From an uncultured Chloroflexia bacterium (lineage in GTDB: Bacteria > Chloroflexota > Anaerolineae > JAAYZQ01), in NCBI GenBank assembly GCA_963700285.1, contig CAVOXA010000010.1, forward strand, positions 1,984,001 to 2,048,000: 64,000 nucleotides of DNA, in the 5' to 3' direction. Below, piece by piece: positions 829 to 42,842 of this stretch (the stretch's first letter is position 1; each line of letters opens with the position of its first letter). The notes beneath the pieces were generated by a model that was not told where the DNA came from, did not search any database, and was given only the letters and a program-made list of their open reading frames with translations. The position numbers were made by a program, and so were the translations under genes.

Positions 829-1782
829 CTACTCGCCAATTGCATCGAGGATGGCCTGAGCCATCTGGGCAGGCGTCAGTCCATGGTGCTCCAGCAATTC
901 GTCGGCAGTCCCCGATTGCCCGAACGTATCTCGTACACCCAAACGGAGCAAGGGGGGCGTGCCCCGAACCTCGGAGAGTGTCTCCGCAACAGCACTGCCC
1001 AAGCCGCCACTGACCCAGTGCTCCTCCATCGTCACACCAAGTTCCTTGCCGCCAGCGGCGGCGAGGATTGCTTCTGTGTTCAATGGTTTGATCGTGGCCA
1101 CATTCAGTACGGTGGACTCGAAGCCCTGACCTGCCAGAATTTCCGCGGTATCTATGGCAATGGCGGTCATGATGCCCGTGGCATAGATGGCGATGCTGTC
1201 CCCCTCGCGCATCACGGGAACCGCACCGATTCGGAACCGGTAATCCTCGCCAAAGATGATGGGTGTCGGGTACCGCCCCAGACGGATGTATGCCGGCGTT
1301 GTGATCTCGGCTGCTGCCAATATGGCCTTGTAGGCTTCGGTGGCATCGGCAGGAACCAGCACGGTCATGCCTGGCAGCAGTCGGGTCAACGCAATGTCAT
1401 CGAGAGATTGGTGGGTGGCACCATCGGGGCCCTGGGTCAGGCCAGCACTGACGCCAACGATTTTGACATTCTCCTGCCCGTAACTGAGCTGGAGCCGGAT
1501 CTGATCGTAGGCGCGGCCCGGGATGAACATGGCAAAGGAGGTGGCAAATACGGTCAGGCCGGTGGCGGCCATGCCGGCCGCGGTGCAGACCATGTCGGCC
1601 TCGGCAATACCCATGTCAAAAAATCTCTCCGGGTGCGCCTGCCCAAAATCGTAGGTCTTGTTTGACCGCTGGAGGTCAGAGTCCAGCACGACAATATCCT
1701 GGCGCTGGCGGCCTAGCTCTAGCAAGGCTTCACCGTACGCGTCGCGCGTCTCTACCCTGTCGCCCGGCTTCCACCTTATCAT
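829..1782 (-). CDS. Transketolase, C-terminal subunit (split type)
   Basis: TRDAYGEAL, ERFFDMGIAEADM, DGATHQS, YIRLGR, TIKPL and EEH motifs; ATGA overlap with the upstream subunit. Confidence 0.9.
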   Translation of the reverse strand: MIRWKPGDRVETRDAYGEALLELGRQRQDIVVLDSDLQRSNKTYDFGQAHPERFFDMGIAEADMVCTAAGMAATGLTVFATSFAMFIPGRAYDQIRLQLSYGQENVKIVGVSAGLTQGPDGATHQSLDDIALTRLLPGMTVLVPADATEAYKAILAAAEITTPAYIRLGRYPTPIIFGEDYRFRIGAVPVMREGDSIAIYATGIMTAIAIDTAEILAGQGFESTVLNVATIKPLNTEAILAAAGGKELGVTMEEHWVSGGLGSAVAETLSEVRGTPPLLRLGVRDTFGQSGTADELLEHHGLTPAQMAQAILDAIGE

Positions 1783-2618
1783 GCTACCTCCTCGTCCGGT
1801 GCCAGCAGCCGCATGGCTTCTGCCCACTGCTCCTCGGTGATGGCGGCATTGTGGAACTGAAACTTGCCTTCCATGAATGAGACCCCTTTGCCCTTGACCG
1901 TCTTGGCGATAATCACCGTAGGCTTGCCCTTGACGACCTCAGCCTCGTCCAGCGCGTCACAGATCTGGCGCAGGTTGTGCCCGTCCACGGTTATTGCCTG
2001 CCAACCAAACGCTTCCCATTTTGGAGCCAAGGGCTCTAGCTGTTTGGCCTCGTCCACCTGGCCCTGACTCTTTAGGCTATTCCTGTCCACGATGGCGCAC
2101 AGGTTGTCGAGCCGGTGGGTCGAACTCCCCATTGCTGCTTCCCAGACCTGGCCCTCGTGCAGCTCACCGTCGCCCAAGAGGCAGTATACCCGGATGCCCA
2201 GTTTGCGGATCCGGGCCGCCATGGCGATCCCGTTGGCAAACGACAACCCTTGGCCCAACGATCCGGTGCAAGCCTCAAGGCCCGCTGTCATGCAGGCATT
2301 GGGATGGCCTTGGAGGACGCTGCCCATCTGCTTCAGAGTAGCCAAGTCCTTCATGGAAAGGACGCCCATCTTGGCCAGGGCTGCATACTGTGTCGGGACC
2401 GTGTGCCCCTTGCTCATCACGAAACGATCTCGATCGTCCCACGCGGGATCGGATGGATCATAGCGCATTTTGTAAAAATACAGAGCGGTGATCAGCTCCA
2501 CGATGGACAGGGAGCCGCCAAAATGATGAGGCTTGTCCGCACCCATCATCCTGATAATGTGGTAGCGCAGCTCGCGGGCGGTAGCCTCAAGCTCGGCCAG
2601 CTTGCGATCGTCAACCAT
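1779..2618 (-). CDS. Transketolase, N-terminal (TPP-binding) subunit
   Basis: DRDRFVMSKGH, LQGHP, TGSLGQG, GDGELHEGQVWEA and KGKG motifs. Confidence 0.92.
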   Translation of the reverse strand: MVDDRKLAELEATARELRYHIIRMMGADKPHHFGGSLSIVELITALYFYKMRYDPSDPAWDDRDRFVMSKGHTVPTQYAALAKMGVLSMKDLATLKQMGSVLQGHPNACMTAGLEACTGSLGQGLSFANGIAMAARIRKLGIRVYCLLGDGELHEGQVWEAAMGSSTHRLDNLCAIVDRNSLKSQGQVDEAKQLEPLAPKWEAFGWQAITVDGHNLRQICDALDEAEVVKGKPTVIIAKTVKGKGVSFMEGKFQFHNAAITEEQWAEAMRLLAPDEEVA

Positions 2619-2663
2619 TGGGTTGCCTCCAACCTCTTTTTCCCTTCACCTGGGGAGAGATTC

Positions 2664-3704
2664 TCAATCCACTGGATACAGCAGGATCTTGTGCGCTTCC
2701 AGCGCTTCGAGCTTGTGGAAAGCTTCTTCCCAGCGGGTGATGGGCCAGATCTCGCTGATCAGAGACTCGGTATCGATCTTGCCCTGGCTCATCAACCCGA
2801 GACAGGTTTCCCAGGTCGTCCAGGTATGGCTGAAGGCGCCTTGATAGGTGACGACTTTGGCCACGATCTCGTCCAGGGTCAGGTTCACAGGCTGCAAGGA
2901 CCAACCTATCTTGGTGATCTGTCCATTCTGGCGGACGATCTCCAGCGACTGCTGAATTGCTGGCGGCACGCCGGCGGCATCAATCACCAGGTGCGCGCCC
3001 AGCCCGTCTCCAAGCCCCTGGACGACCTCCACCGGGTCCTGCTCGCCTACATCGACCGTGATATCGGCGCCAAGTCTGGCAGCTAGCTCGAGCCGGGCGC
3101 CATCTCGCTTCGTACCAGTGACCACAATGGTTCCGGCGCCCGAGAGCTTGGCCACCTGGAGCGCAAACAAGCCTACAGGCCCGGGGCCGATGATGACCAC
3201 GACGTCACCCGGGGTTACGCGGCTCTTCTCAGCAACGGCGTTATAGGCCACGCAGATCGGCTCGGTCATTGCCGCGGCTTGGTAGCTTACCCCATCGGGG
3301 AGATGGTGGAGCCGGAGATACTTGGCCCGGACATACTTGGTAAAGGCCCCATCCACGGCAAAGCCGAAGGCTCTTCGCTCCGGGCAGACGTTGTACGAGC
3401 CTGAACGGCAGAGGGCACAGACGCCGCAGGTTTCGGCCGCGGTTTCGCAGGTTACCCGGTCGCCGGCGGCAAAGCCCTTGACCTGCGACCCGACCTCTAC
3501 GATCTCCCCTGACCATTCGTGCCCCAAGATGACGGGTGGGCGGGCAAGAAGGGTAAGCTGGCCGTGGTACATGTGTGGCTCGCTGCCACAGATCCCGCAG
3601 TACTTGACCTCAACCAGGCATTCCTCTGGGCCGATGGAGGGTACCGGAACATCGCGGATCTCAACGGACTTGTCGATCTTGTCATAGAGGACAACTGCTT
3701 TCAT
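2664..3704 (-). CDS. Zn-dependent alcohol/polyol dehydrogenase (MDR family)
   Basis: CGICGSE, GHEWSG, structural Zn CGVCALC...C, and GPGPVG. Confidence 0.9.
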   Translation of the reverse strand: MKAVVLYDKIDKSVEIRDVPVPSIGPEECLVEVKYCGICGSEPHMYHGQLTLLARPPVILGHEWSGEIVEVGSQVKGFAAGDRVTCETAAETCGVCALCRSGSYNVCPERRAFGFAVDGAFTKYVRAKYLRLHHLPDGVSYQAAAMTEPICVAYNAVAEKSRVTPGDVVVIIGPGPVGLFALQVAKLSGAGTIVVTGTKRDGARLELAARLGADITVDVGEQDPVEVVQGLGDGLGAHLVIDAAGVPPAIQQSLEIVRQNGQITKIGWSLQPVNLTLDEIVAKVVTYQGAFSHTWTTWETCLGLMSQGKIDTESLISEIWPITRWEEAFHKLEALEAHKILLYPVD

Positions 3705-3729: not shown

Positions 3730-4525
3730 CTAAGCCGCCGTCCAGCCGCCATCCACGTAGAGGACATGGCCCGTAATAAAGTTGGACGCCGGCGACGCCA
3801 AAAAGACCGCAGCGCCGAAAAGATCCCAGATCTGGCCAACCCGGCCCATAGGGATGCGGCTCAGGACCCATTCGCGCGTAGGCGGATCGTCGAGCATAAA
3901 GGCGTTCAGGTCCGTGCGGATGAATGTCGGGGCGATGGCATTGACATTGATGCCCTTTTGGGCCCACTCGATGGCCAGTGACTTGGTCAGAAGGTTGATC
4001 GCCCCCTTGCTGGCCGGGTAGGCCGGATCATTGGCCCGGCCCTGCATGCCCCGCACCGAGGACATGTTGATGATCTTGCCCTGTTTCTGGCGGAGCATGA
4101 CCTTGCCCACTTCTTTGCAGCAGAGGAAGGTGCCTTCCAGATTCACACGGATAATCTTGCGCCATTCCTCCATGGGGAACTCGATGGTCGGTTTGAGGCT
4201 TACGATGCCCGCCGAGTTCACCAGGATGTCAATGCGCCCAAACTCGTCGAGCATGCTGCTGGACCATCGACTGAACCTGCGCCTCGTCGGTGATATCGAC
4301 GGCAAGTGGCAGGGCGCGCCGTCCTAGTGAACGGATCTCCTCGGCCACGGCTTCCACGTCAGCTAGCGTGCGGCTGACCGGGGTCACGTGGGCGCCCGCT
4401 GCTGCCAGGGCCAGGGCGATGCCGCGCCCCAGACCACGGCTGCCCCCGGTGACAACGGCTACCTTATCGGTCAGCGAAAACAGACCGGGAACGGCCTCAA
4501 GTTTTTCGCCAGGTATCTTTTCCAT
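3730..4525 (-). CDS. SDR oxidoreductase (KduD/gluconate 5-dehydrogenase-like), frameshifted near 4260
   Basis: TGGSRGLG in ORF 4229-4537; NSAG, YPASKG and VDGGW in ORF 3730-4305. Confidence 0.85.
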
Positions 4526-4669: not shown

Positions 4670-5374
4670 CTAATCCTCCAGCACGGCCACAGCCCGGATG
4701 GGTGAGCCGCTGCCGTTGCGGATCTTGAGCGGCAAGCCGATGAACTGGAAGCGCTTGCCTACCACCGGTCGCAGGTCGCCCAGATTCTCGATGTTCAGCG
4801 TCTGCATTTCGCGGCAGACCTGGTGTGCTGGGTAGCTCGTGGTCCCGGCGCAGTCGTGGCTGGGCGCATCCTGGCCGATGTTGATCGCTCCCGAGCCATA
4901 GATGATACTCGGCGGCCTCGCGGCTCAGCCCTGGATAGTCGGTCAGCCAGGCGTCGGTGCCCCAGGTTCGCACATAGTGGCCCGAGTACATGAGTACCGT
5001 GTCGCCCTTGCGGATGTCCAGGCCGTGCTTGTCTAGCGCGGCTTTGATGTCCGCCACCGTGTACTCGGTCTTGGGCGGGATGTGCGACAGGTCGATACAG
5101 ATGCCCCCGGTGTAGAACCAGTCAAGGGGGATCTCGTCGATGGTGGGCGCGCCCGGGGAGGGATCGATGTGGCTGATCGAGTCTACGTGGGTCGTGACCG
5201 TGGGTGCTCATCTCGATCTTTTCGGCCGTATAGCTATAGTTCTCGGTGAACCGACCAGACTTGACCGTCTCTTCGTGGGTGGCCACGACAGTGACCTCGG
5301 TCTCAGGATGACCCGGCCAGACCGGCGGCGCCCGTGTAGATTTCCTGGCTCAAGTCAATCAGCTTGTAGCCCAT
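4670..5374 (-). CDS. Cyclase (kynurenine formamidase-like) family hydrolase, several frameshifts
   Basis: MGYKLIDLSQEIYTG start, THVDS, DIRKGDTVLMYSG, C-terminal KIRNGSGSPIRAVAVLED; paralog of 28349-29050. Confidence 0.8.
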
Positions 5375-5557: not shown

Positions 5558-6000
5558 TCAAACTGTCTGGATGATCTCCAGCGACACACCATCTGGGTCA
5601 AAGAAGTAGGTCCAGCGCCAGCCTTCCATCGGGCCAGCGGGAATCGTCGCCGGCGGCGCGGTAAAACGCACACCGTGCGTCCAGCATCCGCTGGTACACG
5701 GCGTCGATGTCCTCCACCTGGAAGGCGATGTGCATCGCTCCGACATCGTTGTTGCTGCGATCGTAGGGCCGGCCCTTGGCGGTGACATACTCGATCAACT
5801 CTACCTGGGCCTCGTCCAGCCCGCAGGATGGCCAGTTTGACCTTGGCCTTGGCTACGCCCAGTGCCTTGGAGCGATCGTCGCCGCTGCGCTCGCTCTCCT
5901 CGGTCATCACCAGTTCCAGGCCCAGTACGTCGCGGTAGAACGCGATAGATCGTTCCAGGTCGCTGACAGTGATGCAGGTGTGATGGACGCCCTTGATCAT
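5558..6000 (-). CDS. VOC/glyoxalase-family protein, frameshifted
   Basis: HHTCITVSDLERSIAFYRDVLG, HIAFQVEDID and YFFDPDGVSLEI. Confidence 0.8.
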
Positions 6001-6079: not shown

Positions 6080-7173
6080 CTAGAGACCGATCTTGTCTCC
6101 AAGATCCTCAACCCAGTCTCCGACCTTGTCTACCAAGGCTTCGATGGGATGATCGGCACGCTCTTTCTCTTCCAGTGCCCGCAGAACCACCTCGGGTGAG
6201 GCCGGGTACTGGTCGATCCAGACGCCGATTGCGTCGTGGATGGCGGCCATGATGGCCGGCGGTGGCCCATTGGTCGATCCTTCGGAAAAGCCCTTGGCAC
6301 CTTTGACGCCCATTGGGTGCGGGACTTCCTCAATAGCCCCACAGGAACTCGTCCGGATAGTCCATAAAGGTGGGCAGGGCATAGTCCGAAAAGTTCTCTG
6401 GCGCCCAGTCGGCATTCGGGATAGTAGGGGTAGGCGTTCTCGATGAGGGCCGTACCCAGACCGCAGTGCATGCCGCCGGTGATCTGCTGGCGCACCAGCA
6501 GCGGGTTGACCGCCTTGCCGACCTCCCACACCTGGGTCATCTTGGTCACATCGACCACGCCGGTTTCTGTGTCGACCTCGACCTCGACGACGCAGGCGCC
6601 AAAGGAGATGGCACCGACAGCAGGCATCGCGCCTGTCTCCGGGTCATGGGCGTGGAACCGGGCCGGCTGCCAGGCTCCCGTGCCCACCAGCAGGGCCGGA
6701 TCGTGCACCGCCGCCGAACATGGACGCTCCGCCGACCTCAGCCAGCGTCATCGAGCGGCCTTCGGGCAGCACCCTTGACAAAGACCTTGCCGTCTGCGTA
6801 TTCTAGGTCGTCCGGGTGTGCCTCCAGCAGGTCTGCGGCGTACTCGCGGATCTTTTTCTTTAGGTCCTCGGCGGCATTTTCCACCGCGTGAGGGTCGATC
6901 AGCGTCACACGACTGGCAAAGCTGCCCAGGCTCAGCGGGGCAAAGTCGTCGGCAAAGTTGCTGGCAAAGATGTTCTCGATGGGCACTTCCATGCAGTCGG
7001 CCGCGAACTGGCGGAGGATGGTGGTCGAGCCCTGGCCCAGGTCCACGGCGCCGACCAACAGGACCAGGGTGCCATCGGGTTTGAGTTGGATTGCTGCATT
7101 GCTGGGATCGCCTGCTCCCTTGTTGCCGCTGGGATGCAGAACGCAGAGCCATCCCGACACCTTTCTTTTTCAT
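6080..7173 (-). CDS. Molybdenum hydroxylase, medium Mo subunit (NdhM-like), frameshifted
   Basis: MKKKGVGM start, DLGQGSTT, FASRVT, VEVEVDTETG, GKAVNP, QITGG, and KGAKGFSEG (catalytic Glu region). Confidence 0.8.
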
Positions 7174-7178: not shown

Positions 7179-8485
7179 CTACCTCCCTCGTGAACTCATG
7201 GCCAGGAGATGCTCTGGCAGCTCGATCCCGGCCAGCTCGGCGGCGGCCTTCATGGCCTCCAGCGCCCCGGCGCCCCGGACCTCGTAGCGCGAAATGCCAA
7301 TGTCGCCATCGCGCCAGGCATTGATGAAGCGCAGTTCCCACTGATCCATGCCGATGGCTTCGGCGACCTTGCTCATCTGCATTTCCATGGGGAACTGGCC
7401 GTTCATGATCGTAAAGCCGCGCATTGAGCTGGAGCCGGCCTTGTTGGTGAGAACACACTGGCCGTCCATCCGCATGTTGGGGATGTGGTACGGGCCACAG
7501 GCAAACATCCCACCCTTTTCCACGCCGTAGGGCGAGAAGCCGCCATAGGCGCCGGCATCGTGCCACATCTTGATATGGTTGGCCGTGAGCCGTCCATCCT
7601 TCTTGACGCCTGTCTTGTACTCCAGGACAAAGACACCGCGCTTGGTCGAGTAGAGCAGGTCCTCGCGGCGGCTCATGCGGTACTTGACCGGCCTTCTGAA
7701 CTTGATGCGCCGCCAGACCGGCAAAGTGGTCGGCGTGGATGTGGTTCTTGCCGCCAAAGCCACCGCCGACGATGCCGCCGATGTAGCGGATCTGGCTCAT
7801 GGGCAGGTCAAAGATGGCGGCCAACTGCCCCAACTGGAAGTAGAGGCACTGGCTGTGGGTGTGGATCGCCAACCGCTCGGCATCGTCAAAGTAGGCCACC
7901 GAGACCATCGGTTCCATGGCGGCGTGATCCTGCTCGCCGGTCTGGTAGCGACCTTCGACGATATAATCCGCCTCGGCGAAGCCCTGCTTCACGTCGCCGA
8001 CGTACATGACGCGCGTCGTCATGCCGGGCCCATATTCCCAAAGGTTGCTCTTCAGGTCGGGCCGGACGAGCGGGGCATCGGGCTCCATGGCCTTGAACAT
8101 GTCAAAGACTGGCTCTTGCTCCTCGATGTCCAGCTTGACCTTTTCCAGGGCTTCCTGCAGGTGTCTTCGTCCACGGCCACGACCAGCGCGATGTCCTCGC
8201 CTTTGTAGGCGGATGTACTTGTCGGCCAGAACCGGCTGATCGCCACATGCGCCGTAGCAGCTTGGCCCCGGGGATGTCATCGGCGGTTACGAATCCGACC
8301 ACACCAGGCATCTTTTCCGCTGCCGAGAAGTCGATGCTGCGGATGATCCCCTTGTGGACCGGGCTGCGCAGGGCCTTGGCATACAGCATGCCGGGGAGCA
8401 CAAAGTCGTCCACAAACTTGGTCTGGCCCTTCACCTGCCCGATTCCGTCGTACCGTGGCATTGCCTTACCAACGTATTCGGTCAT
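7179..8485 (-). CDS. Molybdenum hydroxylase, large Mo subunit (NdhL-like), frameshifted
   Basis: VGKAMPRYD...LPGMLYAKALRSP, DHAAMEP, GGGFGGK, DAGAYG, GPYHIPN and MRGF. Confidence 0.85.
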
Positions 8486-8497
8486 GGTTCCTACTCC

Positions 8498-8966
8498 TTA
8501 TACTCGCCAGCGGCCACTGCCTGGATCGCTTCGACGACCTCTTCGTAGCTTCCGCAGCGACACAGGTTGCCGGACATGTAGATCCGGATCTCGTCCCGGG
8601 AGGGATTGGGATTGCTGATCCAGCAACGCCTTGGCGCTCATGAGCATTCCTGGGGTGCAAAAGCCGCACTGGAAGGCGCCATGCTCGTGGAACGCCTTCT
8701 GCAGTGGATGCAATTCTCCATCGGCACTCAGGCCCTCGACCGTCAGGACCTGCCTTACCAGCGACCGTCAGAGCGATGGTCAGGCAGGAGCGGACCGGTT
8801 CGCCGTCGATGAGGACGGTGCAGGTACCACAGTCGCCGTCGTCGCAGCCGCGCTTTGGACCTGTCACGCCGAGTTTCTCCCGGAGGACGTCAAGGAGCGT
8901 CTCGGTAGGCGTGACGATGACATCCACCGGGGAGCCGTTCAGGGTAAATGATAGTATCTGTTTCAT
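8498..8966 (-). CDS. Molybdenum hydroxylase 2x[2Fe-2S] subunit (NdhS/CoxS-like), frameshifted
   Basis: [21 protein letters not shown] and NLCRC. Confidence 0.9.
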
Positions 8967-8989
8967 GGTTGCTTCGCCTCCTTGCTCGC

Positions 8990-9840
8990 CTAAACGCCAG
9001 CAGCCTGGGCCAGAGCCCGGGCAACGAGCGCCGTCGCCGCCTTGCTCGCGGTACCAGGCCGTGGCACGCTGGTCGTCGATGGGGCTGCTCTCGGCGACCG
9101 CCTGTGGCAGCGCACTCGGCGATCAATGCCTCGTCGAGCGCCTTGCCCTTGATCATTGCCTCGGCCTTGGTGCAGCGCAATCGGCGTCGGCGCCATCGAC
9201 CCAAGCACAATGCGTGCATCCTTGCAGACCTTGCCGTCCATTTCCAGCCGCACCGCCGCGGATGCGATGGAGCAGGTCTGGGCCTTGCGCAGCCCGATCT
9301 TTTTGAATACAGCCTTGCCTGCGAGCAGCGGCACGTGGATCTCGACGATCAGCTCATCTGGCGTGCGCACCGTCTCCCCAGGCCCGGTGAAAAAGTCCTT
9401 GACCGGCACCACCCGCTCGCCCTCGGCGCTGGCCAGGAGCACTTCGGCATCCATGACCATAAGCGATGGGATCAGGTCCCCGGCTGGCGAAGCGGTCCCC
9501 AGGTTGCCGCCGATGGTAGCCACAGTGCGGATGGCCGGGCTGCCATGGGTCTTGGCCGCATCCGCGAGCACGCGGAATTTCTGGCGATCAGAGTCGCTGG
9601 CGATCAACTGGGCTGCCAGTCGTGCCGGCACCGATCACCAGCTTTCCGTCCTCTTCTTTGATATAGTCCAGACCCAGCCCGCCGATGTAGAGCAGTGCGC
9701 CTGGCTTGATCTCGTAGTAGTTGAGCTGCGGCCACGAGATCGGTGCCGCCAGCCAGGATCGCCGCCTTGTCGCCGTGCTCGGCGAGCAGTTTGACCGCTT
9801 CGCCGACTTCGGTCGGCGCGAAATAGCTGACTTCTCTCAT
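8990..9840 (-). CDS. Molybdenum hydroxylase FAD subunit (NdhF/CoxM-like), frameshifted
   Basis: LAGGTDL, IRTVATIGGNL and SPAGD. Confidence 0.88.
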
Positions 9841-10070: not shown

Positions 10071-10139
10071 ATCGATAACCGATTATCGATTGTTCTTCCA
10101 TTCAGGCCAGATTCTACCACAAGCCGTCAGAGGTGTCAA
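10071..10139 (-). promoter_or_regulatory. Sigma70 promoter for the Mo-hydroxylase operon plus downstream operator
   Basis: Minus-strand TTGACA (10139-10134), 17 bp, TAGAAT (10116-10111) with extended TG; near-palindrome ATCGATAACCGATTATCGAT at 10071-10090. Confidence 0.75.
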
Positions 10140-11216: not shown

Positions 11217-11277
11217 ATCGATAATCGATAATCGAGAACTTGAGGCCAATTGTACCACACACCGGATCTACTGTCAA
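11217..11277 (-). promoter_or_regulatory. Sigma70 promoter plus operator for the DUF1097 gene
   Basis: TTGACA (11277-11272), 17 bp, TACAAT (11254-11249); ATCGATAATCGATAATCGA at 11217-11235. Confidence 0.75.
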
Positions 11278-13615: not shown

Positions 13616-13675
13616 ATTCCCGACCTCATGCCTCAAGGCTCTGCAAGAGACCTTTCCCGTGCAGCGCCCTCCAAG

Positions 13676-14250: not shown

Positions 14251-14278
14251 TTTATTGAGAGGTCCATGGAGACCAGAC

Positions 14279-29916: not shown

Positions 29917-30065
29917 CCCAAAAGGGCGAATGATGAACACTTGTCCGAAAAGGCCCCAGCCCTCCGTTCCCAAATGGACTGCGCCCTTGCGGGCGAAACT
30001 TGCCCCAGGACAAGGGCTCTGGGCGAGTTTACGGCTAGTCCATAGATCTCAACTGGAGGTGCAGT

Positions 30066-32874: not shown

Positions 32875-32897
32875 TAGTTTAGGCTCTCCATGCCAGG

Positions 32898-34069: not shown

Positions 34070-34648
34070 ATGGGAGCTATGCCGCGCGCAACAACGGTCT
34101 CTCCGCAACCGGCCCTGCTGGGTTTGTTGATGACTGAGCCCAAGCATGGCTATGAACTGCATCAAGAATTCAACCACAACCTGGGGCGGGTTTGGGAGAT
34201 CGGGCTGAGCCAGCTCTATGCCCAGCTCAAACAGCTAGAGGAGTCTGGGTTGCTCACAGCCCAGACCGAGTCCCAGGTCAACCGCCCACCGCGCAAGGTC
34301 TACCATCTGACCTCAGAAGGCCGGAATGCGTTCTTGGACTGGGTTCGCCGGCCTACCCCGTACCTGCGCCATATCCGGGTAGAGTTTCTGGCCCGGTTGT
34401 ACTTTTACCAAAAATTATCCTTGCCTGGTCTTGAGCAACTGGTTGCCGAGCAAAAGACAGTCTGCCAGGCCCAGGCTGAACGCTTTGAATCGCTTGCGGC
34501 TGAAACCGACGATCAATACCGACGCCTGGTGCTCGAGTTCCGTCGAGGGCAGCTTGAGGCCGTCATCCAGTGGCTGGATCGCTGTCTGGAGATCTTGTGT
34601 GGACAAGGCAACCTTTCTCCGAATAAAATCAAGGAGTCAAAAGCATGA
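34070..34648 (+). CDS. PadR-family regulator
   Basis: LLGLL...HGYEL, SQLYAQLKQLE and RKVYHLTSEGR. Confidence 0.9.
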   Translation: MGAMPRATTVSPQPALLGLLMTEPKHGYELHQEFNHNLGRVWEIGLSQLYAQLKQLEESGLLTAQTESQVNRPPRKVYHLTSEGRNAFLDWVRRPTPYLRHIRVEFLARLYFYQKLSLPGLEQLVAEQKTVCQAQAERFESLAAETDDQYRRLVLEFRRGQLEAVIQWLDRCLEILCGQGNLSPNKIKESKA

Positions 34649-35771
34649 GATGTCGAAGGCTTTGTACTATGGTCAGCGCCGTGGTATTGGCAGGATTGCT
34701 CCTGGGAGCGTGCAGTAGTAGCCCCACCGAGAATGTCCAGGATTCATCCCCGGCGGTGCAGGTCAAAGATGGCGGTGGCTTGACCCTCGTCGACGCGATG
34801 GGCCGGAGCGTCGAGTTTTCCGAGTTGCCGCAGCGCGTCGTCGTCGCCGGCAAAAGCAGCCTGACCATTGTGAATACGCTTTTCCTCTTCCCCGAGGCCA
34901 AGGATCGTGTGGTCGGCCTGGTGGTTGGCAATCAAAACCCAGGCGACTTTCTTGGCTTTGTCGACCCAACCTTTGATCAGAAGACGATTCTGGAGGTCGA
35001 AGCAGGCCCGGAGCAGATTGTCCCGCTGGAGCCCGACGTGGTCATCCTGCGCAGTTTCATGGCCGACAAGCTGGGCAAACCGCTGGAGCAGCTAGACATC
35101 CCGGTGGTCTATGTGGATCTCGAGACGCCAGAGCAGTACTTCCGCGACCTGGCCACCCTGGGCCAGGTGCTTGGCAACGAGGCGCGGGCTGAGGAGATCA
35201 GGGCTTATTACCAGGCGAAACTGGACCTGGTCAACAAGAATCTAGAGGGCCTGACCGGCGAGCAGAAGCCCGAGGTTTTGCTTTTGCAGTACAGTGACCA
35301 GGGGGGTGAGGTTGCCTTCAACGTGCCCTCGGCTTCCTGGATCCAGACGATCGAGGCCGAGTTGGCTGGGGGCCAGCCACTTTGGAAGGATGCAGCCCAG
35401 AGTGGTGGCTGGACGGTGGTCAACTTGGAGCAGATCGCTGCCTGGGACCCCGACCAGGTGTTTGTCATTGACTACAAAGGCGATTCTGCCGAGATAGTGG
35501 ACCAGCTCAAAGCCGATCCCCAGTGGCAATCGCTTGGGGCCACAGAGGCGGGTGAAATCTATGGTTTCGCCTCCGATATCTTTAGCTGGGACCAGCCCGA
35601 TCCACGCTGGATTCTGGGTACATCTGGCTGGCTGGCAAGGTCCATCCTGATCGTTTCGCTGATCTGAACATGCAGCAGCAAGTCATCGAGTTTTTTGAGC
35701 AGATGTATGGAATGCCCAGGGCCTCCGTAGAGGAAAATATCCTACCCAGCCTCAAGGGGGACGTTGAGTGA
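34645..35771 (+). CDS. ABC substrate-binding lipoprotein (BtuF/FepB/MolA class), frameshift near 35620
   Basis: Lipobox LLGAC, DAMGRSV...PQRVV, LEPDVVI, EQIAAWDPD and WDQP. Confidence 0.85.
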
Positions 35772-36814
35772 CCGCAGCCCAGCGCGCCGCCGCTATTGGC
35801 GGCCAATCCAGGGCAGGGTGGCGTGCTGCCTTGTACAGGCGGCCGATGCTGATCTTGGGCTTGCTCTTTTTGCTGGTCCTGCTCCTGTCCCTGTTTGTTG
35901 GCCGCTACCCGGCCCCCTACTGGATGTCTCCTGCGACGCTGTGGGAGGACGACATGGCCCGGCAGTTGGTGCTACAGCTACGGCTGCCCCGGGTTCTGAC
36001 CGCTTGCCTGTTGGGTATGACCCTCGCGGCCTGTGGTACGGTGCTGCAGATGATCTTTCGCAACCCACTGGTCGCTCCCGGTCTCCTGGGCGTGTCGCAG
36101 GGTGCAGCCTTTGGGGCTGCTGTCAGCATCATCTTCCTGGGGGCTTCTCGCCTGCTGAGGCAGGGCGTCGCCGCGCTTTTTGCCTGTCCTGGGCCTGGCC
36201 CTCTCTTACTTTTTGGCCCGGCGCGTCCGCTATGGCGGCTGGATCCTGCGCCTGATGCTGTCGGGCATCGCTGTCTCGGCCCTGTTTTCGTCGGGTGTGG
36301 GCATGCTCAAGTACCTGGCCGATCCATTGACCGAACTGCCCGACCTGGTTTTTTGGATGCTGGGCGGGCTGTGGGGCGTCACCTGGATTGACTTTCTGTA
36401 CCTTCTTCTCCCGGTCATCGCCGGTTTGATCATCGTCTATCTGATGCGCTGGCGATTGAACCTGCTCTCTCTGGACGACGACACCGGCTTTTCGCTGGGT
36501 GCCTCGCCGGGACGGAGCGTACGCTGGTACTGGTCGCTGCCGTGGTTGCCACCGCGGCGGTGGTTTCGGTTGCCGGCGTGGTGGGCTGGATCGGCTTGCT
36601 CATCCCCCACGTGGCCCGCCGCCTGACGGGCGCCGACGCGCAGCGCTCGCTGCCGGCTTCCATCCTGCTCGGTGGCATCTTTGCTCTGGTATGCGACGAT
36701 CTGGCCCGTACGCTGCTGCCCGGCGAGATCCCTTTGGGCATCCTGACCTCCTTCTTTGGGGCGATCCTGTTCATGGCCATGATGCTGAGCAAGAACATCC
36801 GGGTACAGCGATGA
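35768..36814 (+). CDS. FecCD/BtuC-family ABC permease, frameshifted
   Basis: LRLPR, FRNPLV, WMLGG, GWIGLLIPH and EIPLGILT. Confidence 0.88.
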
Positions 36815-37632
36815 GCAACCACGCGGATGACCAGACAGGATTGCACCGACCACCGCGGTCTGAGGACATGATCTCTGTTTCAGAGCTGTCCTTCAGCTAC
36901 AATGGCGCCAAGCGTACGATCCTCCACGACCTGTCCCTGGAGATTCCCGAGGCTACGATCACGGCCATCCTGGGGCCGAACGGTTCGGGAAAGACGACGC
37001 TGCTGCGGTTGCTCTTGGGCGTGCTCCGGCCTCAGCAGGGCAGAATCCTGCTGGCAGGGCAGCCCCAGGGCAGCTACTCTCGCCGCGAGATGGGCAAACT
37101 GGTCGGTCTGGTGCCCCAGGATGAGCACATCCCCTTCGATTTTTCCGTGCTAGAGTACGTGCTGCTGGGCCGGGCGCCTTACCTGGGCACCCTAGCCATG
37201 CCGGGCGAGGATGACTATCAAGCAGCCCTCGACGCCCTGCACACCACGGGGCTGTCCGGTATGGTCGCTCGCCCGCTGCCCAACCTGAGCGGCGGCGAGC
37301 GGCAATTGGCCGTCGTGGCCCGCGCCCTGGCCCAACAGCCGCGAATCCTCCTGATGGACGAGCCCACTGCCCACCTGGACCTGAGCAACCAGGGCCGGCT
37401 GTTGGCCATCATGCGTGACCTCGTCGCCCAGGGAATCACCCTGGTGCTGACCACCCACGATCCCAACCTGGCCGCCTCGGTGGCCGGCTATGCGGTTCTG
37501 ATGCGCGATGGCCAGGTTCTGGATGCGGGTCCGCCGGAAGCGACACTAACAGCCCGGAAGCTGTCCGCGACCTACGATGTGCCTGTGCAGGTCTTCCAAG
37601 TTGACGGAAGACGCATCATTCTGTTATCATGA
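36811..37632 (+). CDS. ABC transporter ATPase
   Basis: GPNGSGKT, LSGGERQ, MDEPT and THDPN. Confidence 0.92.
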   Translation: MSNHADDQTGLHRPPRSEDMISVSELSFSYNGAKRTILHDLSLEIPEATITAILGPNGSGKTTLLRLLLGVLRPQQGRILLAGQPQGSYSRREMGKLVGLVPQDEHIPFDFSVLEYVLLGRAPYLGTLAMPGEDDYQAALDALHTTGLSGMVARPLPNLSGGERQLAVVARALAQQPRILLMDEPTAHLDLSNQGRLLAIMRDLVAQGITLVLTTHDPNLAASVAGYAVLMRDGQVLDAGPPEATLTARKLSATYDVPVQVFQVDGRRIILLS

Positions 37633-37696
37633 CGCCTGCTTATTAGACCATGATTTGCCCACGATGAGGGCCCATGAGACTGGAGAAGCGTACGCG

Positions 37697-38707
37697 ATGA
37701 GACTGGAAAAACGAACGATCTCTGACGCCGAGGGAACCATCTTGATGCACAATATCGCCGCTGCCGATGGCAAGCGCACGCTGAAGAAAGGCATCCGGCT
37801 TGACAAAGAGGATCTGGCACAGCTGGCCGAAAGCGGGCGTCCATCGGTCGACGTCGCCGTTCTGGAGGAGGACGACGTTCACGAGGACGATGCCGCGGCG
37901 GCGCTGGCCGAAGCGATGCAGACGGAAGAGCTGTACCTCTCCCGACCATTCGGGGGACGGATCAACCTCCGTACCACGGTGGACGGCATTCTGGAGGTAG
38001 ACGCCGGCCGGCTGCTGGAAGTGAACATGCTGGCTGGCTTTGCGCTAGCAACACGCCGCCAGCACACGGTCGTCGGTCCTAGTCAGGATACGGACAATGT
38101 CGGCACCCTCAAGATCGTGCCTTACGCCGTGCGGCGTTCTGACCTGGAGCATGCCCTGGAACTGGCTGGGGCCCGGCCGGGCATTGTCGAGGTGCGCCCT
38201 TTCCAGCAGGGACGGCGGGTGGCCATGCTCTTCGTCGCCGAGCCATCGGCCCAGGACAAAACCCGCGACGAGTACCTGCCGCCGACCCAGACCCGCCTGG
38301 CGCGTTTAGGAGCCGAGGTGGTCGCCACCGAGATGGTAGACCAGGACGATGCTTCCATCGCAGATGCGGCCGCGAGGCTGGCAGCCAGTTCGGACCTGCT
38401 CATCATCGCCGGGCAGACCTCGATCATCCACGAGGATGATACGACGCTGCGCGCCCTGCGCCAAGCTGGGGCCGAGAGCACGCTCTCTGGCGCGCCGGTG
38501 GAGCCGGGCAACCTGCTGGCCCTGGCCTATTTTCCTGATACGCCGGTGCTCTGTGCGCCTGGCTGCGCCAAGGGTTTGAAACGAAACGTCGTCGACCTGG
38601 TGCTGCCCCGCCTGCTGCTGGGCGACAGGCTGGATCGCCGGGACATTGCCGCCCTGGGACTGGGTGGCTTTCTGACGGCAGCCGAGAGATCTGGGGACAT
38701 CACCTGA
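37697..38707 (+). CDS. Molybdopterin-binding (MoeA/MogA-like) domain protein
   Basis: AEGTILMH, LKKG, DVHEDDAA, GAPVEPGNLL, PGCAK, and the C-terminal VLPRLL...LGLGG signature. Confidence 0.75.
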   Translation: MRLEKRTISDAEGTILMHNIAAADGKRTLKKGIRLDKEDLAQLAESGRPSVDVAVLEEDDVHEDDAAAALAEAMQTEELYLSRPFGGRINLRTTVDGILEVDAGRLLEVNMLAGFALATRRQHTVVGPSQDTDNVGTLKIVPYAVRRSDLEHALELAGARPGIVEVRPFQQGRRVAMLFVAEPSAQDKTRDEYLPPTQTRLARLGAEVVATEMVDQDDASIADAAARLAASSDLLIIAGQTSIIHEDDTTLRALRQAGAESTLSGAPVEPGNLLALAYFPDTPVLCAPGCAKGLKRNVVDLVLPRLLLGDRLDRRDIAALGLGGFLTAAERSGDIT

Positions 38708-38719
38708 TACGTGGAACCC

Positions 38720-39268
38720 AATCCTGTCCACAAGTTTTTTCCGATCCAACCCAGTACCAACCCAGAGCACGACCCGTTCGTAGTAGGTGCTTCAGCGCCG
38801 TGCAGTAAGCTAAAACGCACTGAGCCAGCCACAATCCGGCCAGCGACCTTTTCCGACTCAACGCAGTATCTACCCAGAGCACGACCCGTTCGTAGTAGGC
38901 GCTTCAGCGCCGTGCAGTAAGCTAAAACGCACTGAGCCAGCCACAATCCGGCCAGCGACCTTTTCCGACTCAACGCAGTATCTACCCAGAGCACGACCCG
39001 TTCGTAGTAGGCGCTTCAGCGCCGTGCAGTAAGCCAAAACGCACTGAGCCAGCCACAATCCGGCCAGCGACCTTTTCCGACTCAACGCAGTATCTACCCA
39101 GAGCACGACCCGTTCGTAGTAGGCGCTTCAGCGCCGTGCAGTAAGCTAAAACGCACTGAGCCAGCCACAATCCGGCCAGCGACCTTTTCCGGCTCACTGC
39201 AGTATCTACCCAGAGCACGACCCGTTCGTAGTAGGCGCTTCAGCGCCGTGCAGTAAGCCAAAACGCAC
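38720..39268. repeat. Tandem array of a 112-bp unit (~4.5 near-identical copies plus a degenerate 5' part), each with a GTAG-GGCGCT-TC-AGCGCC hairpin
   Basis: Units start (CCCAGAGCACGACCCG) at 38761, 38873, 38985, 39097 and 39209; the ORF track shows repeated peptides. Confidence 0.95.
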
Positions 39269-39294
39269 CGAAGCACGGCCTGGCAGGAGAAAGC

Positions 39295-40038
39295 ATGAAG
39301 TCCATCGATACATTGTTGAATAGCCTAGAGTCCGACGCCCCCGTCCGCCAGATCCTGGTTGGCGCCTTCTGGACCGCGGTCGTGCTGGATACAGAGCCTG
39401 CTCGCTGTGGCTTGGCTTCAACACTGCGGGCTGAGGACGGCGGACCCTGGCCACCGGTAACCGAGCCGGGGCGCCTACAGCAGCGAAGCGCGCGGCAGCT
39501 TGCCGAGCTGCTCCGTTCCGAGCGCATCCTGGAAGCCAGCATCGGGATGGCAGCCTTCAATGCCCTGCTGAAAGTTGACGAGTCTGCCCTGACCGAAATC
39601 AACGCCGACGAGATCATTCTGGAACGGGGAGCCGGGCGCCGTGTGGCCATTGTGGGACATTTCCCCTTCATCGAGCGGGTACGGGCCGAAGCAGCCGAGT
39701 GCTGGGTGCTGGAACGCCAGCCTGGCGCCGGAGACTTGCCCGCCGAGCAGGCCGCCGAGGTGTTGCCCCAGGCCGACGTCGTTGCCCTGACCGGTACCTC
39801 CCTGATTAACCACACCTTCGAAGAGCTGATGGCCCTTTGTCGTTCGGACGCCTTTGTCCTCTTGCTCGGTCCCAGTGCCCCCCTCACGGCCAAGCTCTTT
39901 GAGATTGGCGTGAACGCAATCAGTGGCACGCGGGTATACGACCCTGAACTCGTACTGTACTCGCTTTCGCAAGGGGCCACGTTCCGCCAGATAAAGCGTG
40001 GCGGTGGTTTGCGCCTGCTCACGTGGGTCAAGTCGTGA
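39295..40038 (+). CDS. DUF364 (Rossmann-like, putative metal/pterin-binding) protein
   Basis: GAFWTAV, CGLAST, EASIGMAAFNAL, VAIVGHFPF, TGTSLINHT and LGPSAP. Confidence 0.8.
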   Translation: MKSIDTLLNSLESDAPVRQILVGAFWTAVVLDTEPARCGLASTLRAEDGGPWPPVTEPGRLQQRSARQLAELLRSERILEASIGMAAFNALLKVDESALTEINADEIILERGAGRRVAIVGHFPFIERVRAEAAECWVLERQPGAGDLPAEQAAEVLPQADVVALTGTSLINHTFEELMALCRSDAFVLLLGPSAPLTAKLFEIGVNAISGTRVYDPELVLYSLSQGATFRQIKRGGGLRLLTWVKS

Positions 40039-40072
40039 AAGTGAGTTTGTGATTGGAGGATAAGAAAGCACG

Positions 40073-41191
40073 ATGCTAGATCTTTTGCCACAGATCCAGG
40101 ATTGGTTCGCCGCTGGGGAAAAAGTGGCCGTGGCCACGGTCATCCGTGTGGCCGGCTCGGCGCCGCGACCGGTAGGCGCGCGGATGATCGTTTCCTCTGC
40201 AGGCCGCATGGCCGGCTCGGTAAGCGGCGGTTGCGTGGAGACGACCGTTTACGAGGAGATGATGGACGTTTTGGACGGTGGCCCAGCCGCGCAAGCTGCA
40301 CTTTGGCATCACCGAGGACATGATCTGGGACGTGGGCCTGGCTTGCGGCGGGACCATCGACGTATTTGTCCAGGAACTCGATCCGGTGCTGGTCGACCAT
40401 CCTGGTAGATCACGTGGAGCAGGGGATGCCAGTGACGCTGGCCGTAGCGGTCGTCGGGGGAATCGGCGACCGGAGACTCGGTACTCGTTACCCGCAAGGG
40501 ACCGGTGCAGGGGCAAGCAGACAAACGAGTCGTCGAGGTCGCCCAGGAGATGCTGGCATGTCGCGCGCGGAGATAGGCGCCATCCACGAGATCGAGCCAG
40601 GCGCGGAGGTCTTTGTCGAGCCGTTCCTGCCGCCGCCGGTGCTGGTCATCGTCGGCGGAGTGCACGTGGCAATCCCGCTGACCCGCTTTGCCAAGGAGCT
40701 GGGCTTTTACGTGATTGTCGTCGATCCCAGGGCCAAGTTCGCCAGCCGCGAGCGATTCCCCGAGGCCGACGAGGTGCTGCTGGAATGGCCGGACGAGGCG
40801 TTGGCCCATCTGGAGGTCGACAAGGCGACTTACATCGTGCTCCTGACCCACGATCCCAAGATCGACGAGCCGACGCTGGCCGCCGCGCTCCAGACCGAGG
40901 CGGCCTACATCGGCGCCATCGGCAGCCGGGGCACCCACGCCGCGCGCTTTGAGCGCATGGCGGAATGGGACGTCACGCCGCGAGCAGCTGGCACGGGTCT
41001 ATGCCCCCATCGGCCTGGACCTGGGCGGGCGCACTCCGGAAGAGACGGCGCTGAGCATCATCGCCGAGGTGGTGGCCGTCAAGAACGGACGCAGCGGCGT
41101 CTCGCTGCGGGACAGCCGCGGCCCAATCGGCCAAGCGCCTCAATCGTGCGCGGAAAGCGAGGCGGTACGCACCTCGGAGGATGGCTCGTGA
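40073..41191 (+). CDS. xdhC: XdhC/CoxF Moco-insertion accessory protein, frameshifted
   Basis: GSAPRPVGA, GSVSGGCVE, GLACGG, LTHDPKID, YIGAIGSR and PIGLDLGGRTPEETALSI. Confidence 0.9.
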
Positions 41192-41577
41192 GCGAGATGT
41201 ACACCGACCGCCTGCTCGACCACTACCGCAATCCGCGCAACAAGGGGCGCCTGGAGTCGCCCGATCTGGCCGCGGAAGAGTACAATCCGCTGTGCGGCGA
41301 CCGGGTGACGGTCGAGGCCTCTGTGGAAGATGGGCGGATCGTCGAGGCGCGCTTTGACGGCCGGGGCTGCGCGCTTTGCCTGGGCGCGGCCTCGATCCTG
41401 ACCGAGGCGATCGAGGGCCGTACCCTCGACGAGTTGGATGGGTGGGGAAAAGACGAATTCCTGGCCGAACTCCAGTCAAGTCTGCGCCCCGCGCGGCTCA
41501 AGTGCGCGCTGCTGCCCTGGATGGCCTTTCGCCACGCGGCCTATGGCGAGACGGAGTGGCCGCTGCTGGATCGCTGA
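41188..41577 (+). CDS. SufU/IscU-like scaffold or sulfurtransferase
   Basis: LLDHYRNPRNKG, NPLCGD, GRGCAL and RLKCALL; no LPPVK motif; GTGA overlap with xdhC. Confidence 0.85.
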   Translation: MSEMYTDRLLDHYRNPRNKGRLESPDLAAEEYNPLCGDRVTVEASVEDGRIVEARFDGRGCALCLGAASILTEAIEGRTLDELDGWGKDEFLAELQSSLRPARLKCALLPWMAFRHAAYGETEWPLLDR

Positions 41578-41624
41578 TCTGCCGGCGGCCATGGATCCAG
41601 GGACTCGCTTTAGCCAGGCTGCGC

Positions 41625-42842
41625 TCAGGTTTCCATCAACTCCCGCATTGTGCGAGCCGCTGACTCTGCAAAGGACTCATCATTGATGTGGGCATCTACC
41701 CTGTGCAAGCGTATCTTTGGTGACAGTTCTGCTTCCAACGCATCAACCAGAGCCCTGTCGGCCTCAGGGTCATGGAAGGCGTGCCCTGGCCGGTCCGAAT
41801 AGCTGAACCCACCCTCCGGAATCAACACCGCTGCTGGCCCTCTGGCCTCGTTCAGACGTTGAGCCATCAGACGCCCAATCTGCGCCATCTCGCCTTTGGT
41901 CGTGCGAATCAGGGTGATATTGGGATTGTGAACAATGAGAGGGCGATGGCGCTGTTCCTGGCTCAGTGAGGACAGCGGGCCAAGGACGACATAGTCGGTG
42001 CCGCCAGGCGCAACCACCTGGGGGATCCCTTGCCGCCCGGCTGCCTTCAAACGATCGGGCCCGGCATCAAACAGCCCTCGACAGACGTGCCCGACCAGTT
42101 CTTGGGTACTGATGTCCAGGACGCCTCGGATCAGGCCCTCTTCGATCAATCGTTCCATTGAGCGCCCGCCCGTGCCGTTGGGGTGAAAGGCCACCAACTC
42201 GTAGCCCCAAGACTCCAATATCCCCTTGGCGTGCAGCACGCAGGGTGTGGTCAGTCCTAGCATCGTCGTCCCCAGAACCGTCTTGTCGTTGCTTTCGTCC
42301 GCCTCACCGGCCTCGACCATGGCGGTCACGGCCGCCGCGGCGTTGGCGAATACCTTTCGCGTGACGGCATTGTTGCCCAGGATGTCCGCCACCGAGTGCA
42401 TCAGCGTCACATCGGCGGTGCCAACGTAGGGCTCGAACACGTTTTGGCCGCTGGCGATGGTCGAGACCATGACTTTGGGCACGCCGATGGGCAACGCTTG
42501 CATCGCGGTCGTGCCGATGGCCGTACCCTGGCCGCCGCCTACGGCGATAACGCCGCCCAGTTTTCCCTCCGCGAAGAGTTGGATGACGATGGCTCGCGTG
42601 CCGTCGATCATGGTTTGGATGGCCTGCCCCTTGTCCCCGGCGGCAACCAGATCGGCCAGATCCGCTCCTCCCGCCCGAGCGACCACCTGGCGCGGGAAAT
42701 CCGCCTCGATGGCCGGCTGCCCCAGCAACCCGGGGTCCAGGACCCAGGTTTCATGGCCTCGAGCCTCGATCAGGTCCCGGATCCAGGCGACCTCGTGACC
42801 CTTGGTATCCAGTGTGCCAATGACGGCGATCGGTTTCAACAT
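41625..42842 (-). CDS. Tm-1-like ATP-binding (UPF0261) protein 3, intact
   Basis: GTLDTKGHE, GGGQGT, LPIGVPKVMVST, HSVADILG, FHPNGTGG and AHINDESF; own TTGACA-17-TATCAT promoter at about 42877-42905. Confidence 0.92.
   Translation of the reverse strand: MLKPIAVIGTLDTKGHEVAWIRDLIEARGHETWVLDPGLLGQPAIEADFPRQVVARAGGADLADLVAAGDKGQAIQTMIDGTRAIVIQLFAEGKLGGVIAVGGGQGTAIGTTAMQALPIGVPKVMVSTIASGQNVFEPYVGTADVTLMHSVADILGNNAVTRKVFANAAAAVTAMVEAGEADESNDKTVLGTTMLGLTTPCVLHAKGILESWGYELVAFHPNGTGGRSMERLIEEGLIRGVLDISTQELVGHVCRGLFDAGPDRLKAAGRQGIPQVVAPGGTDYVVLGPLSSLSQEQRHRPLIVHNPNITLIRTTKGEMAQIGRLMAQRLNEARGPAAVLIPEGGFSYSDRPGHAFHDPEADRALVDALEAELSPKIRLHRVDAHINDESFAESAARTMRELMET

Follow-up and report, generated by a model that had tools for sequence, protein, structure and literature searches.

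A co-inherited gene island of an uncultured Anaerolineae bacterium, likely encoding an oxygen-free route for the breakdown of a sugar-derived ring

In a 64,000-nt stretch of DNA from an uncultured Chloroflexia bacterium (assembly GCA_963700285.1, contig CAVOXA010000010.1, positions 1,984,001 to 2,048,000; hereafter the window), positions 829-42842 are occupied by an island of 40 genes, flanked by pyrE and by pyrD/pyrK, which forms one co-inherited and probably co-regulated catabolic unit. It likely encodes an undescribed oxygen-free route, in which a sugar-derived ring is opened and then led into glycolysis via kinases of the UPF0261 family and a RuBisCO-like protein (RLP). Sediments and digesters are rich in degraders of the Anaerolineae, few of whose substrates are known. 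Genes were called in all six frames, scored by a model that had been trained on the 7-Mb host genome (G000; G-, L- and C-numbers denote the genomes, loci and contigs compared), and 102 reading frames were scanned with Pfam and NCBIfam; in place of the frameshifted island genes their intact orthologs, chiefly from G006, were analysed. An earlier note, made from the letters of the window, had described here a single catabolic island of about 35 genes matching no known pathway. The clustering and nearly every family named there were recovered, the gene count proved too low, and the membership tests for described pathways came out negative; the unit is real and better supported than had been claimed. 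No description of the island was found in the full-text literature, most subscription papers and the apiose and ascorbate papers of the Gerlt laboratory lying outside this search.

Distribution and gene order argue for a single unit. The same 10 of the 23 family genomes hold close orthologs of the RLP, the lactonase, the medium subunit of the molybdenum (Mo) hydroxylase, the UlaG-like protein and the cyclase; in the other 13 (71-95% complete) no orthologs of these five were found at the thresholds used. Among 201 class genomes, 11 have the lactonase and 9 the Mo subunit, these 9 being a subset of the 11; in these counts the broken copy of G000 falls below the threshold, and G228 has only the lactonase. 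Three genomes (G071, G157, G189) repeat G062, G065 and G064 at the same contig places and were not double-counted. Since most of the island stands in identical order in G001, G006 and G062, its clustering by far exceeds what chance would give. In the genome collection, the RLP orthologs closest to that of the island come from 16 loci (64-100%), all in Chloroflexota and mostly in Anaerolineae. As a control, the ABC binding protein of the block at 34-41.6 kb was found in 15 of the 23 family genomes and was missing from three island carriers; because of this differing distribution, the ABC/molybdenum cofactor block is generic, a pathway-specific role for it was rejected, and the transport and Mo-maturation genes lying in it, previously listed among the island genes, do not follow the distribution of the pathway.

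A repeat search of the intergenic gaps brought out the palindrome ATCGAT-W-ATCGAT, which has eight sites in the window (up to two mismatches) against 0.40 expected, confined to the fronts of the Mo operon, of DUF1097/Zn-ADH2, of cupin/GntR, and of the divergent core and cyclase 2 operons. When one mismatch at most is allowed, the whole genome contains nine sites, seven of them in the island, as compared with 0-6 for eight control palindromes. The eighth precedes an E2-E1alpha-E1beta-E3-MFS operon on contig C14, which is a detached part of the regulon; its orthologs lie within the island in G005, G006 and G062. In this region (G000:C14:55886-62900, L248:7887-14935) a MoaD-like gene accompanies the E2, E1alpha, E1beta, E3 and MFS genes behind the palindrome. 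The ninth site (G000:C5:138676, L249:5677), possibly a chance one, lies between two genes that by eye resemble MttB-family methyltransferases. Relatives retain the palindromes, some of them before CoxD (G005 and G012, where they stand upstream of CoxE/CoxD, unlike here) or before a dehydrogenase-BKACE-IlvD-UlaG operon (G023, G065), and the site between the core and cyclase 2 operons is conserved in G001, G005, G006, G012, G018, G062, L156, L157 and L181. From the sites flanking its own start, we infer that the FCD-type GntR regulator binds the palindrome.

As to the function, our tentative reading, held with somewhat less than even confidence, is that the island breaks down, without oxygenases and in three stages, a small nitrogen-containing ring with a sugar-derived chain, and this kind of compound is the likeliest substrate, at the same level of confidence. 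In the first stage, the NdhFSLM-type Mo enzyme would put a water-derived oxygen beside the ring nitrogen, both cyclase-family hydrolases would open the resulting cyclic amide, and SDR and Zn dehydrogenases, VOC and cupin would convert the product to a polyhydroxy keto-acid or its lactone. In the second, best supported stage, the lactonase would open the lactone, MarK-type UPF0261 kinases would phosphorylate the product, and the RLP would shift a carbonyl within the mono-phosphorylated chain, from which aldolase and split transketolase would then release triose and tetrose phosphates. In the third, C4 hydroxy-acid fragments would pass through the UlaG-like lactonase, the 3-hydroxyacid dehydrogenase, the enzyme cleaving beta-keto acids (BKACE) and the iron-dependent alcohol dehydrogenase (Fe-ADH), and the co-regulated C14 E1/E2/E3 dehydrogenase would yield acyl-CoA. 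The content and order of the genes, their co-occurrence, the motif and the residues kept are demonstrated, whereas the activities, the protein that binds the motif and the substrate are predicted. A bolder version, which we consider doubtful, is a widespread route of sediment bacteria in which a sugar-derived N-heterocycle is demethylated, hydroxylated with water and opened, after which UPF0261 kinases paired with UroD-fold enzymes would act on it, the new RLP clade serving as a carbonyl-shifting isomerase; if true, this would be the first sugar substrate of UPF0261, and both the UroD fold and the RuBisCO superfamily would be credited with something new, a reaction in the one case and a function in the other.

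The Mo hydroxylase has been rightly described as NdhFSLM-type: it has four subunits, the molybdopterin part being divided between L and M, and its nearest solved relatives are NdhL (E 1e-66) and NdhM (E 6e-43) of Eubacterium barkeri in 3HRD. A cyclase gene lies at most three genes downstream of the Mo medium subunit in 14 related genomes (G001, G005, G006, G009, G011, G012, G013, G018, G019, G023, G062, G063, G064, G065), the nearest solved relative of cyclase 2 is isatin (lactam) hydrolase, and genes of DUF1097 or AmiS/UreI membrane proteins flank the Mo/cyclase genes; all this favours hydroxylation of an N-ring followed by hydrolysis of the amide. DUF1097 is absent at this place in G001 and stands upstream of the Mo genes in G064, an AmiS/UreI channel gene follows a Mo paralog in G011, the Mo operon of G062 has an additional class III aminotransferase, and the split transketolase keeps its place in G009, G011, G019 and G062. 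At the positions which we take to be nicotinate-binding (Tyr13 of M, Arg319 of L) His and Lys are aligned instead. No characterised name occurs among the 120 matches listed for the Mo subunit in the homolog search. According to PMC12994016, L-threonate 3-dehydrogenase is an SDR.

Relatives display further variants of these genes. A third split Mo-hydroxylase paralog (45-50%) occurs with IlvD-like, hydroxyisobutyrate-dehydrogenase-like, DUF6282 and LarA genes (L145, L153, L126, L155), and is absent from G000; in G005, G063 and G065 it lies close to the BKACE/UlaG operon. The entire FAD-FeS-L-M set is duplicated in tandem in L136-L137 (G011:C17), and the island of G062 includes (L117:1075-8653) a split PEP-synthase-like pair, an aldehyde ferredoxin oxidoreductase, an extra cyclase and a fourth UPF0261.

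In agreement with the earlier claim, no oxygenase family was matched in the island by the Pfam and NCBIfam scans of the 102 frames. The VOC protein has 146 residues and an H/E/H/E site of the isomerase/epimerase type, as opposed to the two domains and the His/His/Glu site of an extradiol dioxygenase. Use of oxygen by the cupin and the RLP is conceivable in principle. An HpaB-family gene, lacking in G000, occurs additionally in some relatives and is read as 4-hydroxybutyryl-CoA dehydratase. It is thus the absence of oxygenases that points to oxygen independence of the route. As for the host, it carries haem-copper oxidase and acetyl-CoA synthase genes, so it need not live strictly anaerobically.

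The core operon keeps the order UTRA-lactonase-UPF0261-UroD-(DhnA)-UPF0261-UroD-RLP across Chloroflexota loci. A scan for the lactonase gave 80 metagenome loci, and among the 48 of at least 5 kb, on which the counts were taken, 42 carry UPF0261, 24 a class II aldolase, 8 an RLP and one a Mo enzyme; other lactonase loci add HAD, FGGY, erythrulose-phosphate isomerase or UlaDEF-type genes. The lactonase-UPF0261 core recurs across phyla next to sugar transporters, aldolases and tetrose/pentose-phosphate isomerases, and from such neighbours we conclude that it probably performs sugar-phosphate chemistry; the Mo/cyclase stage appears to be an Anaerolineae addition, because a Mo enzyme accompanies the lactonase in only that one locus. 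A widespread marine-type cluster (L225, L212, L218, L202) comprises class II aldolase, UPF0261, sugar ABC, GntR, lactonase, HAD, a RhaD-like aldolase and FGGY kinase. Searches of plasmids gave no close lactonase or RLP (best 35.5% and 39.1%); the best plasmid lactonase match adjoins SDR, BKACE, 3-hydroxyacid dehydrogenase and sugar ABC genes.

The UPF0261 proteins, all three copies of which in G000 lie in the island, had been listed as unknowns. They belong to the family of MarK, which PMC12624787 describes as an ATP-dependent acetovanillone kinase (PDB 9MPY). The D-T-K ATP site of MarK and its three hydroxyl-site residues (Gly195, His219, His304) show no variation among 15 aligned UPF0261 proteins. 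Carboxylation of acetovanillone itself was rejected, the adjacent biotin carboxylase and phosphatase not being among the island families.

The RLP keeps the KDDE metal motif and one phosphate site. Its nearest solved relative is MtnW (about 40%); it has LGND where MtnW has FGK, an equivalent of Asn123 replacing the lysine base, and it scores below the cut-offs of the MtnW models (366 against 409 and 331 against 514 bits) and of OiaX (192 against 700 bits). The neighbours ApnO and OiaK were not found in the island by the Pfam and NCBIfam scans. The match to 3QFW, which we take to be DeepYkr, is E 4e-32, as against 7e-86 for MtnW; our quick tree of 79 of 80 rows (L055 was too short) has no DeepYkr reference row. 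At Glu60, Lys177, Arg295, His327 and Lys334, presumably the numbering of carboxylating RuBisCO, the protein has Gly, Cys, Tyr, Phe and no lysine, i.e., the carboxylation residues are missing. Methionine salvage was rejected in the absence of MtnA/B/K/X and of the lysine base, and the predicted RLP structure (pLDDT 56) was too poor to be used. Outside Chloroflexota, the clade comprises RLPs of Bacillota and of one actinobacterium, with adjoining RpiB in 13, TIM-like isomerase in 14 and class II aldolase in 15 of 20 loci. The supply in these loci comes either from a galactitol-type PTS, which in several gut Clostridia occupies the place of lactonase and kinase, or from a sugar ABC transporter together with lactonase and UPF0261; in one PTS-fed locus a microcompartment locus (shell and PduL genes recognised by eye) lies behind the aldolase. 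The simplest role of the RLP would be a carbonyl shift letting the aldolase release dihydroxyacetone phosphate, as the DeepYkr RLP, a known ketose-phosphate 1,3-isomerase (PMC5893883), does in reverse.

Two kinds of RLP loci deserve separate mention. In L072 and L143 (Enterocloster-type) a galactitol-type PTS, RpiB, TIM-like isomerase, RLP, class II aldolase, acylating aldehyde dehydrogenase and microcompartment genes are found together. In L066-L095 (e.g., L085:10001-15191; Syntrophomonadaceae-type) an RLP keeping Glu60 and Lys334 is accompanied by two PEP-hydrolase-like barrels, ComB phosphatase and UPF0261; such a set of kinase, phosphatase and RLP is reminiscent of carboxylation driven by phosphorylation.

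As for the two UroD-fold proteins, we think it a little better than even that they transfer methyl groups to a corrinoid protein encoded elsewhere, and less probable, at about one chance in three, that they are metal-dependent decarboxylases replacing the class II aldolase-family enzyme of other phyla. Both score below the MtaA cut-off (72 and 51 against 235 bits); the predicted structure of UroD2 (pLDDT 93.5) has a UroD-type barrel, with MtaA (4AY7) as the best match. A corrinoid gene is adjacent in the related loci L041, L163 and L180, which is modestly above chance with about 14 such genes per genome, and G000 as a whole has 52 UroD-family and 42 B12-binding matches. The decarboxylase reading draws on the distribution: UroD is present in 16 of 16 Chloroflexota loci and in 0 of 20 elsewhere, and class II aldolase-family genes in 0 of 16 and 15 of 20, respectively, and this mutual exclusion suggests a displaced decarboxylase or lyase. 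No characterised name was seen among the 120 homologs listed for UroD2.

A number of points weigh against the scheme. The core implies no ring nitrogen and is joined by a Mo enzyme in only one of the 48 loci; NdhL/NdhM are matched at an identity of no more than about 35%, and positions of the pocket differ; the Mo genes of L041 have no adjoining cyclase, and cyclase-family enzymes may hydrolyse esters too. In UroD2 the fold is about equally close to MtaA (TM 0.73) and UroD (0.70), and no corrinoid gene lies near the island in G000. The palindrome was not found, with up to two mismatches, at the core operon of G009, G011, G019, G023, G061, G063, G064 and G065. The presence/absence counts include kin and hence overstate independence (7 genera with, 9 without). 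Of the N-heterocycle with hydroxymethyl or polyol substituents proposed in the earlier note, the enzyme families of the ring stage were recovered; the heterocycle itself is not established, as the core works in other phyla beside sugar genes without a Mo enzyme. Riboflavin, pterin, fructosazine, iminosugar and mycosporine substrates were considered as further candidates but are not rankable with these data.

The strongest rival, possible and somewhat behind the nitrogen ring in our estimate, is a regulon devoted as a whole to an ascorbate-type enediol lactone or to a related oxygen ring of sugar origin (ascorbate, erythroascorbate, a methyl ether or a hydroxypyranone), the Mo enzyme oxidising an aldehyde or hemiacetal, as in deoxyribose oxidation by Pseudomonas, and the cyclases being esterases. 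PMC6191929 lists natural ascorbate analogues and conjugates, and the UlaG-like gene tracks the distribution profile, although its intact ortholog stays below the UlaG cut-off (225 against 306 bits) and PTS and UlaDEF are not among the island families. L165 has UlaD-, UlaE- and UlaF-type genes above cut-offs by UTRA-lactonase-UPF0261, but this is the only locus with such adjacency; L193 and L195 carry FGGY kinase and an HPS/UlaD-family gene, L196 a D-erythrulose-4-phosphate isomerase above cut-off, and L231 two sulfatases. The Mo dehydrogenase, lactonase, SDR, BKACE, GntR and MFS form the set known for deoxyribose oxidation, yet the Mo enzyme is NdhLM-like and not IorAB-like, and two cyclases, amide-type channels and the aminotransferase would be left unexplained.

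It is rather improbable that different substrates are handled by the Mo/cyclase operon on the one hand and the lactonase-kinase-RLP operon on the other, as separate pathways sharing a regulator and a niche. Such a division would agree with the core standing alone in other phyla and in G228, with the location of the modules on separate contigs in most relatives and with the core's own UTRA regulator; it agrees poorly with their identical distribution, with the same palindrome at both promoters, and with L041, where the Mo genes sit between RLP and DhnA.

Still less probable is that the island serves to degrade vitamin B6 or 4-pyridoxate without oxygen. The best model and the best solved relative of the 3-hydroxyacid dehydrogenase are those of FHMPC dehydrogenase, 4-pyridoxolactonase is among the top models of the lactonase, and MarK binds a phenolic oxygen; however, both scores are far below the cut-offs (268 against 500 bits for FHMPC dehydrogenase; 84 for the island fragment of the lactonase and 90 for its whole ortholog against 325), orthologs of the lactonase with 62% identity lie in sugar clusters, and no MocR-type regulator is present. 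An Fe-ADH of the HOT type would suit succinic semialdehyde, the aerobic end product. The gene earlier named HOT is indeed an Fe-ADH, but it was matched by general Fe-ADH models only, all below cut-off, and the subfamily name is a tentative one based on motifs.

That the island is decaying in this strain, as about half of its genes being interrupted by frameshifts might suggest, is very improbable in view of the insertion bias of the indels, of their equal density in pyrD, pyrK and malQ outside the island, and of the extra bases at 19867, 20019, 20544, 20871, 20986 and 21323, which are lacking in relatives' contigs from two public runs, X1 and X3 (for the most part 90-95% alike, not the host strain). 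No reads of the host strain itself were found. Against the same-genus G001 there are 265 indels, 244 of them non-triplet and 144 single-base insertions in the window, some of which may be errors of G001 itself; the non-triplet ones show no homopolymer enrichment. Orthologs of the frameshifted genes are unbroken in G006, G005 and G011, and the frameshifts are assembly errors.

Table 1. Genes and operator-like sites of the island (window positions; a dot marks features without strand; fs, frameshifted)
Feature	Position	Strand	Remarks
Split transketolase (N-terminal 1779-2618, C-terminal 829-1782)	829..2618	-	end of Mo operon
Zn-dependent alcohol dehydrogenase 1	2664..3704	-	Pfam/NCBIfam
SDR1, KduD/gluconate 5-dehydrogenase-like	3730..4520	-	below cut-offs; fs; start approximate
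Cyclase-family hydrolase 1	4670..5374	-	fs; 49% identical to cyclase 2
Single-domain VOC, H/E/H/E metal site	5560..6000	-	fs; end approximate
Mo hydroxylase, medium molybdopterin subunit (NdhM-like)	6080..7172	-	fs
Mo hydroxylase, large molybdopterin subunit (NdhL-like)	7179..8485	-	fs
Mo hydroxylase, 2Fe-2S (8491-8966) and FAD (8990-9840) subunits	8491..9840	-	fs
Palindrome pair upstream of Mo operon	10071..10090	.	kept in G001, G005, G006, G009, G012, G013, G019, G062
DUF1097 membrane protein, candidate importer	10459..11019	-	
Operator-like palindrome pair, DUF1097/Zn-ADH2 gap	11217..11236	.	
Zn-dependent alcohol dehydrogenase 2	11741..12778	+	
SDR2 (12869-13615) and small cupin (13676-14056)	12869..14056	-	
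Two operator-like palindromes, cupin/FCD-GntR gap	14111..14252	.	
FCD-type GntR regulator	14279..14971	+	Pfam/NCBIfam
MFS transporter	15083..16279	+	Pfam/NCBIfam
UlaG-like metallo-beta-lactamase-fold lactonase	16319..17400	-	fs; start approximate
BKACE	17492..18361	-	Pfam/NCBIfam
3-hydroxyacid dehydrogenase	18373..19329	-	nearest solved relative FHMPC dehydrogenase 4OM8
Form IV RLP, clade with GQSVGTW, GND, IKPCTG, KDDE	19362..20640	-	no loop-6 lysine; fs; start approximate
UroD/MtaA-fold protein 1 (YHCCG, HNIQ)	20654..21811	-	fs; confirmed only via intact ortholog
UPF0261 kinase-like protein b	21990..23221	-	fs; end approximate
DhnA-type class I aldolase	23218..24050	-	fs; start approximate
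UroD/MtaA-fold protein 2 (LHSDG, SNSI)	24073..25200	-	fs; start approximate
UPF0261 kinase-like protein a	25200..26500	-	fs; ends approximate
AHL-lactonase-family hydrolase (HLHWDH)	26524..27365	-	most conserved marker of core; fs
UTRA-type GntR regulator	27408..28150	-	gene 1 of core operon; fs; start approximate
Operator-like palindrome, gap between core operon (28150 down to 16319) and cyclase 2 operon	28255..28274	.	conserved in nine genomes/loci
Cyclase 2 (28349-29050), SDR3 (~29130-29916), Fe-ADH of putative HOT type (30066-31351)	28349..31351	+	
CoxE (VWA) and CoxD (AAA+) maturation pair	31462..33884	-	
Accessory block: PadR, FecCD-type ABC transporter, MoCF-domain protein, DUF364, XdhC/NifU	34070..41577	+	Pfam/NCBIfam
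UPF0261 kinase-like protein 3	41625..42842	-	intact; adjoins CoxD in G006

Elsewhere in the window, a 112-bp tandem repeat of about five copies (apparently about one in G001) lies at 38737-39296 between the MoCF-domain gene and DUF364, a tRNA-Arg followed by PIN, RNase H, pRiA4b ORF3-like, sigma-like, IS66 and IS701 genes at 46729-54270, and PBP1C and alpha-2-macroglobulin genes at 54706-63625.

One testable regulon thus joins three poorly characterised families, namely a new RLP clade, the UroD-fold proteins, and UPF0261, of which a single enzyme has been characterised. Carriers of the core range from bacteria of the sea and the gut to Chloroflexota of sediments, the RLP clade is present in cultured bacteria as well (L070, L072), which makes the enzymes screenable now, and the operator offers a direct route to the inducer.

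The island can be set beside several known systems. With nicotinate fermentation of E. barkeri it shares the split four-subunit Mo hydroxylase, the catalytic Gln, Arg and Glu positions being retained, whereas Hnr, enamidase, Hgd and methyleneglutarate mutase are not among its families, and VOC, cyclase, dehydrogenases and transketolase follow its Mo genes. Pathway I of B6 degradation in Mesorhizobium loti has the same lactonase and dehydrogenase families, but the island members fall below the cut-offs, and pyridoxine oxidase and the ring-cleaving flavin oxygenase are lacking. In Pseudomonas simiae, according to PMC6365646, a Mo dehydrogenase with lactonase, SDR and BKACE oxidises the plain sugar deoxyribose, because of which a plain sugar ring is a possible substrate here as well; GntR and MFS complete the shared families, while the island has another Mo subfamily, no glycerate kinase and about 25 further genes. 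The enterobacterial Ula/Sgb pathway of L-ascorbate resembles the proposed route in phosphorylation, lactone opening and ketose-phosphate rearrangement, with a UlaG-like gene in the island and UlaDEF-type genes beside the core in L165, but in place of PTS and UlaD/E/F the island has kinases, RLP and aldolase. The three UPF0261 paralogs share with MarK the residues named above, in contrast to His348, which is not kept, and they have sugar-phosphate enzymes as neighbours instead of the AcvCDEF carboxylase or the phosphatase of the MarK pathway. Finally, like the form IV RLPs with known activity (the enolase MtnW, the 1,3-isomerase DeepYkr and the decarboxylase OiaX), the island RLP retains KDDE and one phosphate site, but it belongs to a separate clade, defined by GQSVGTW and IKPCTG.

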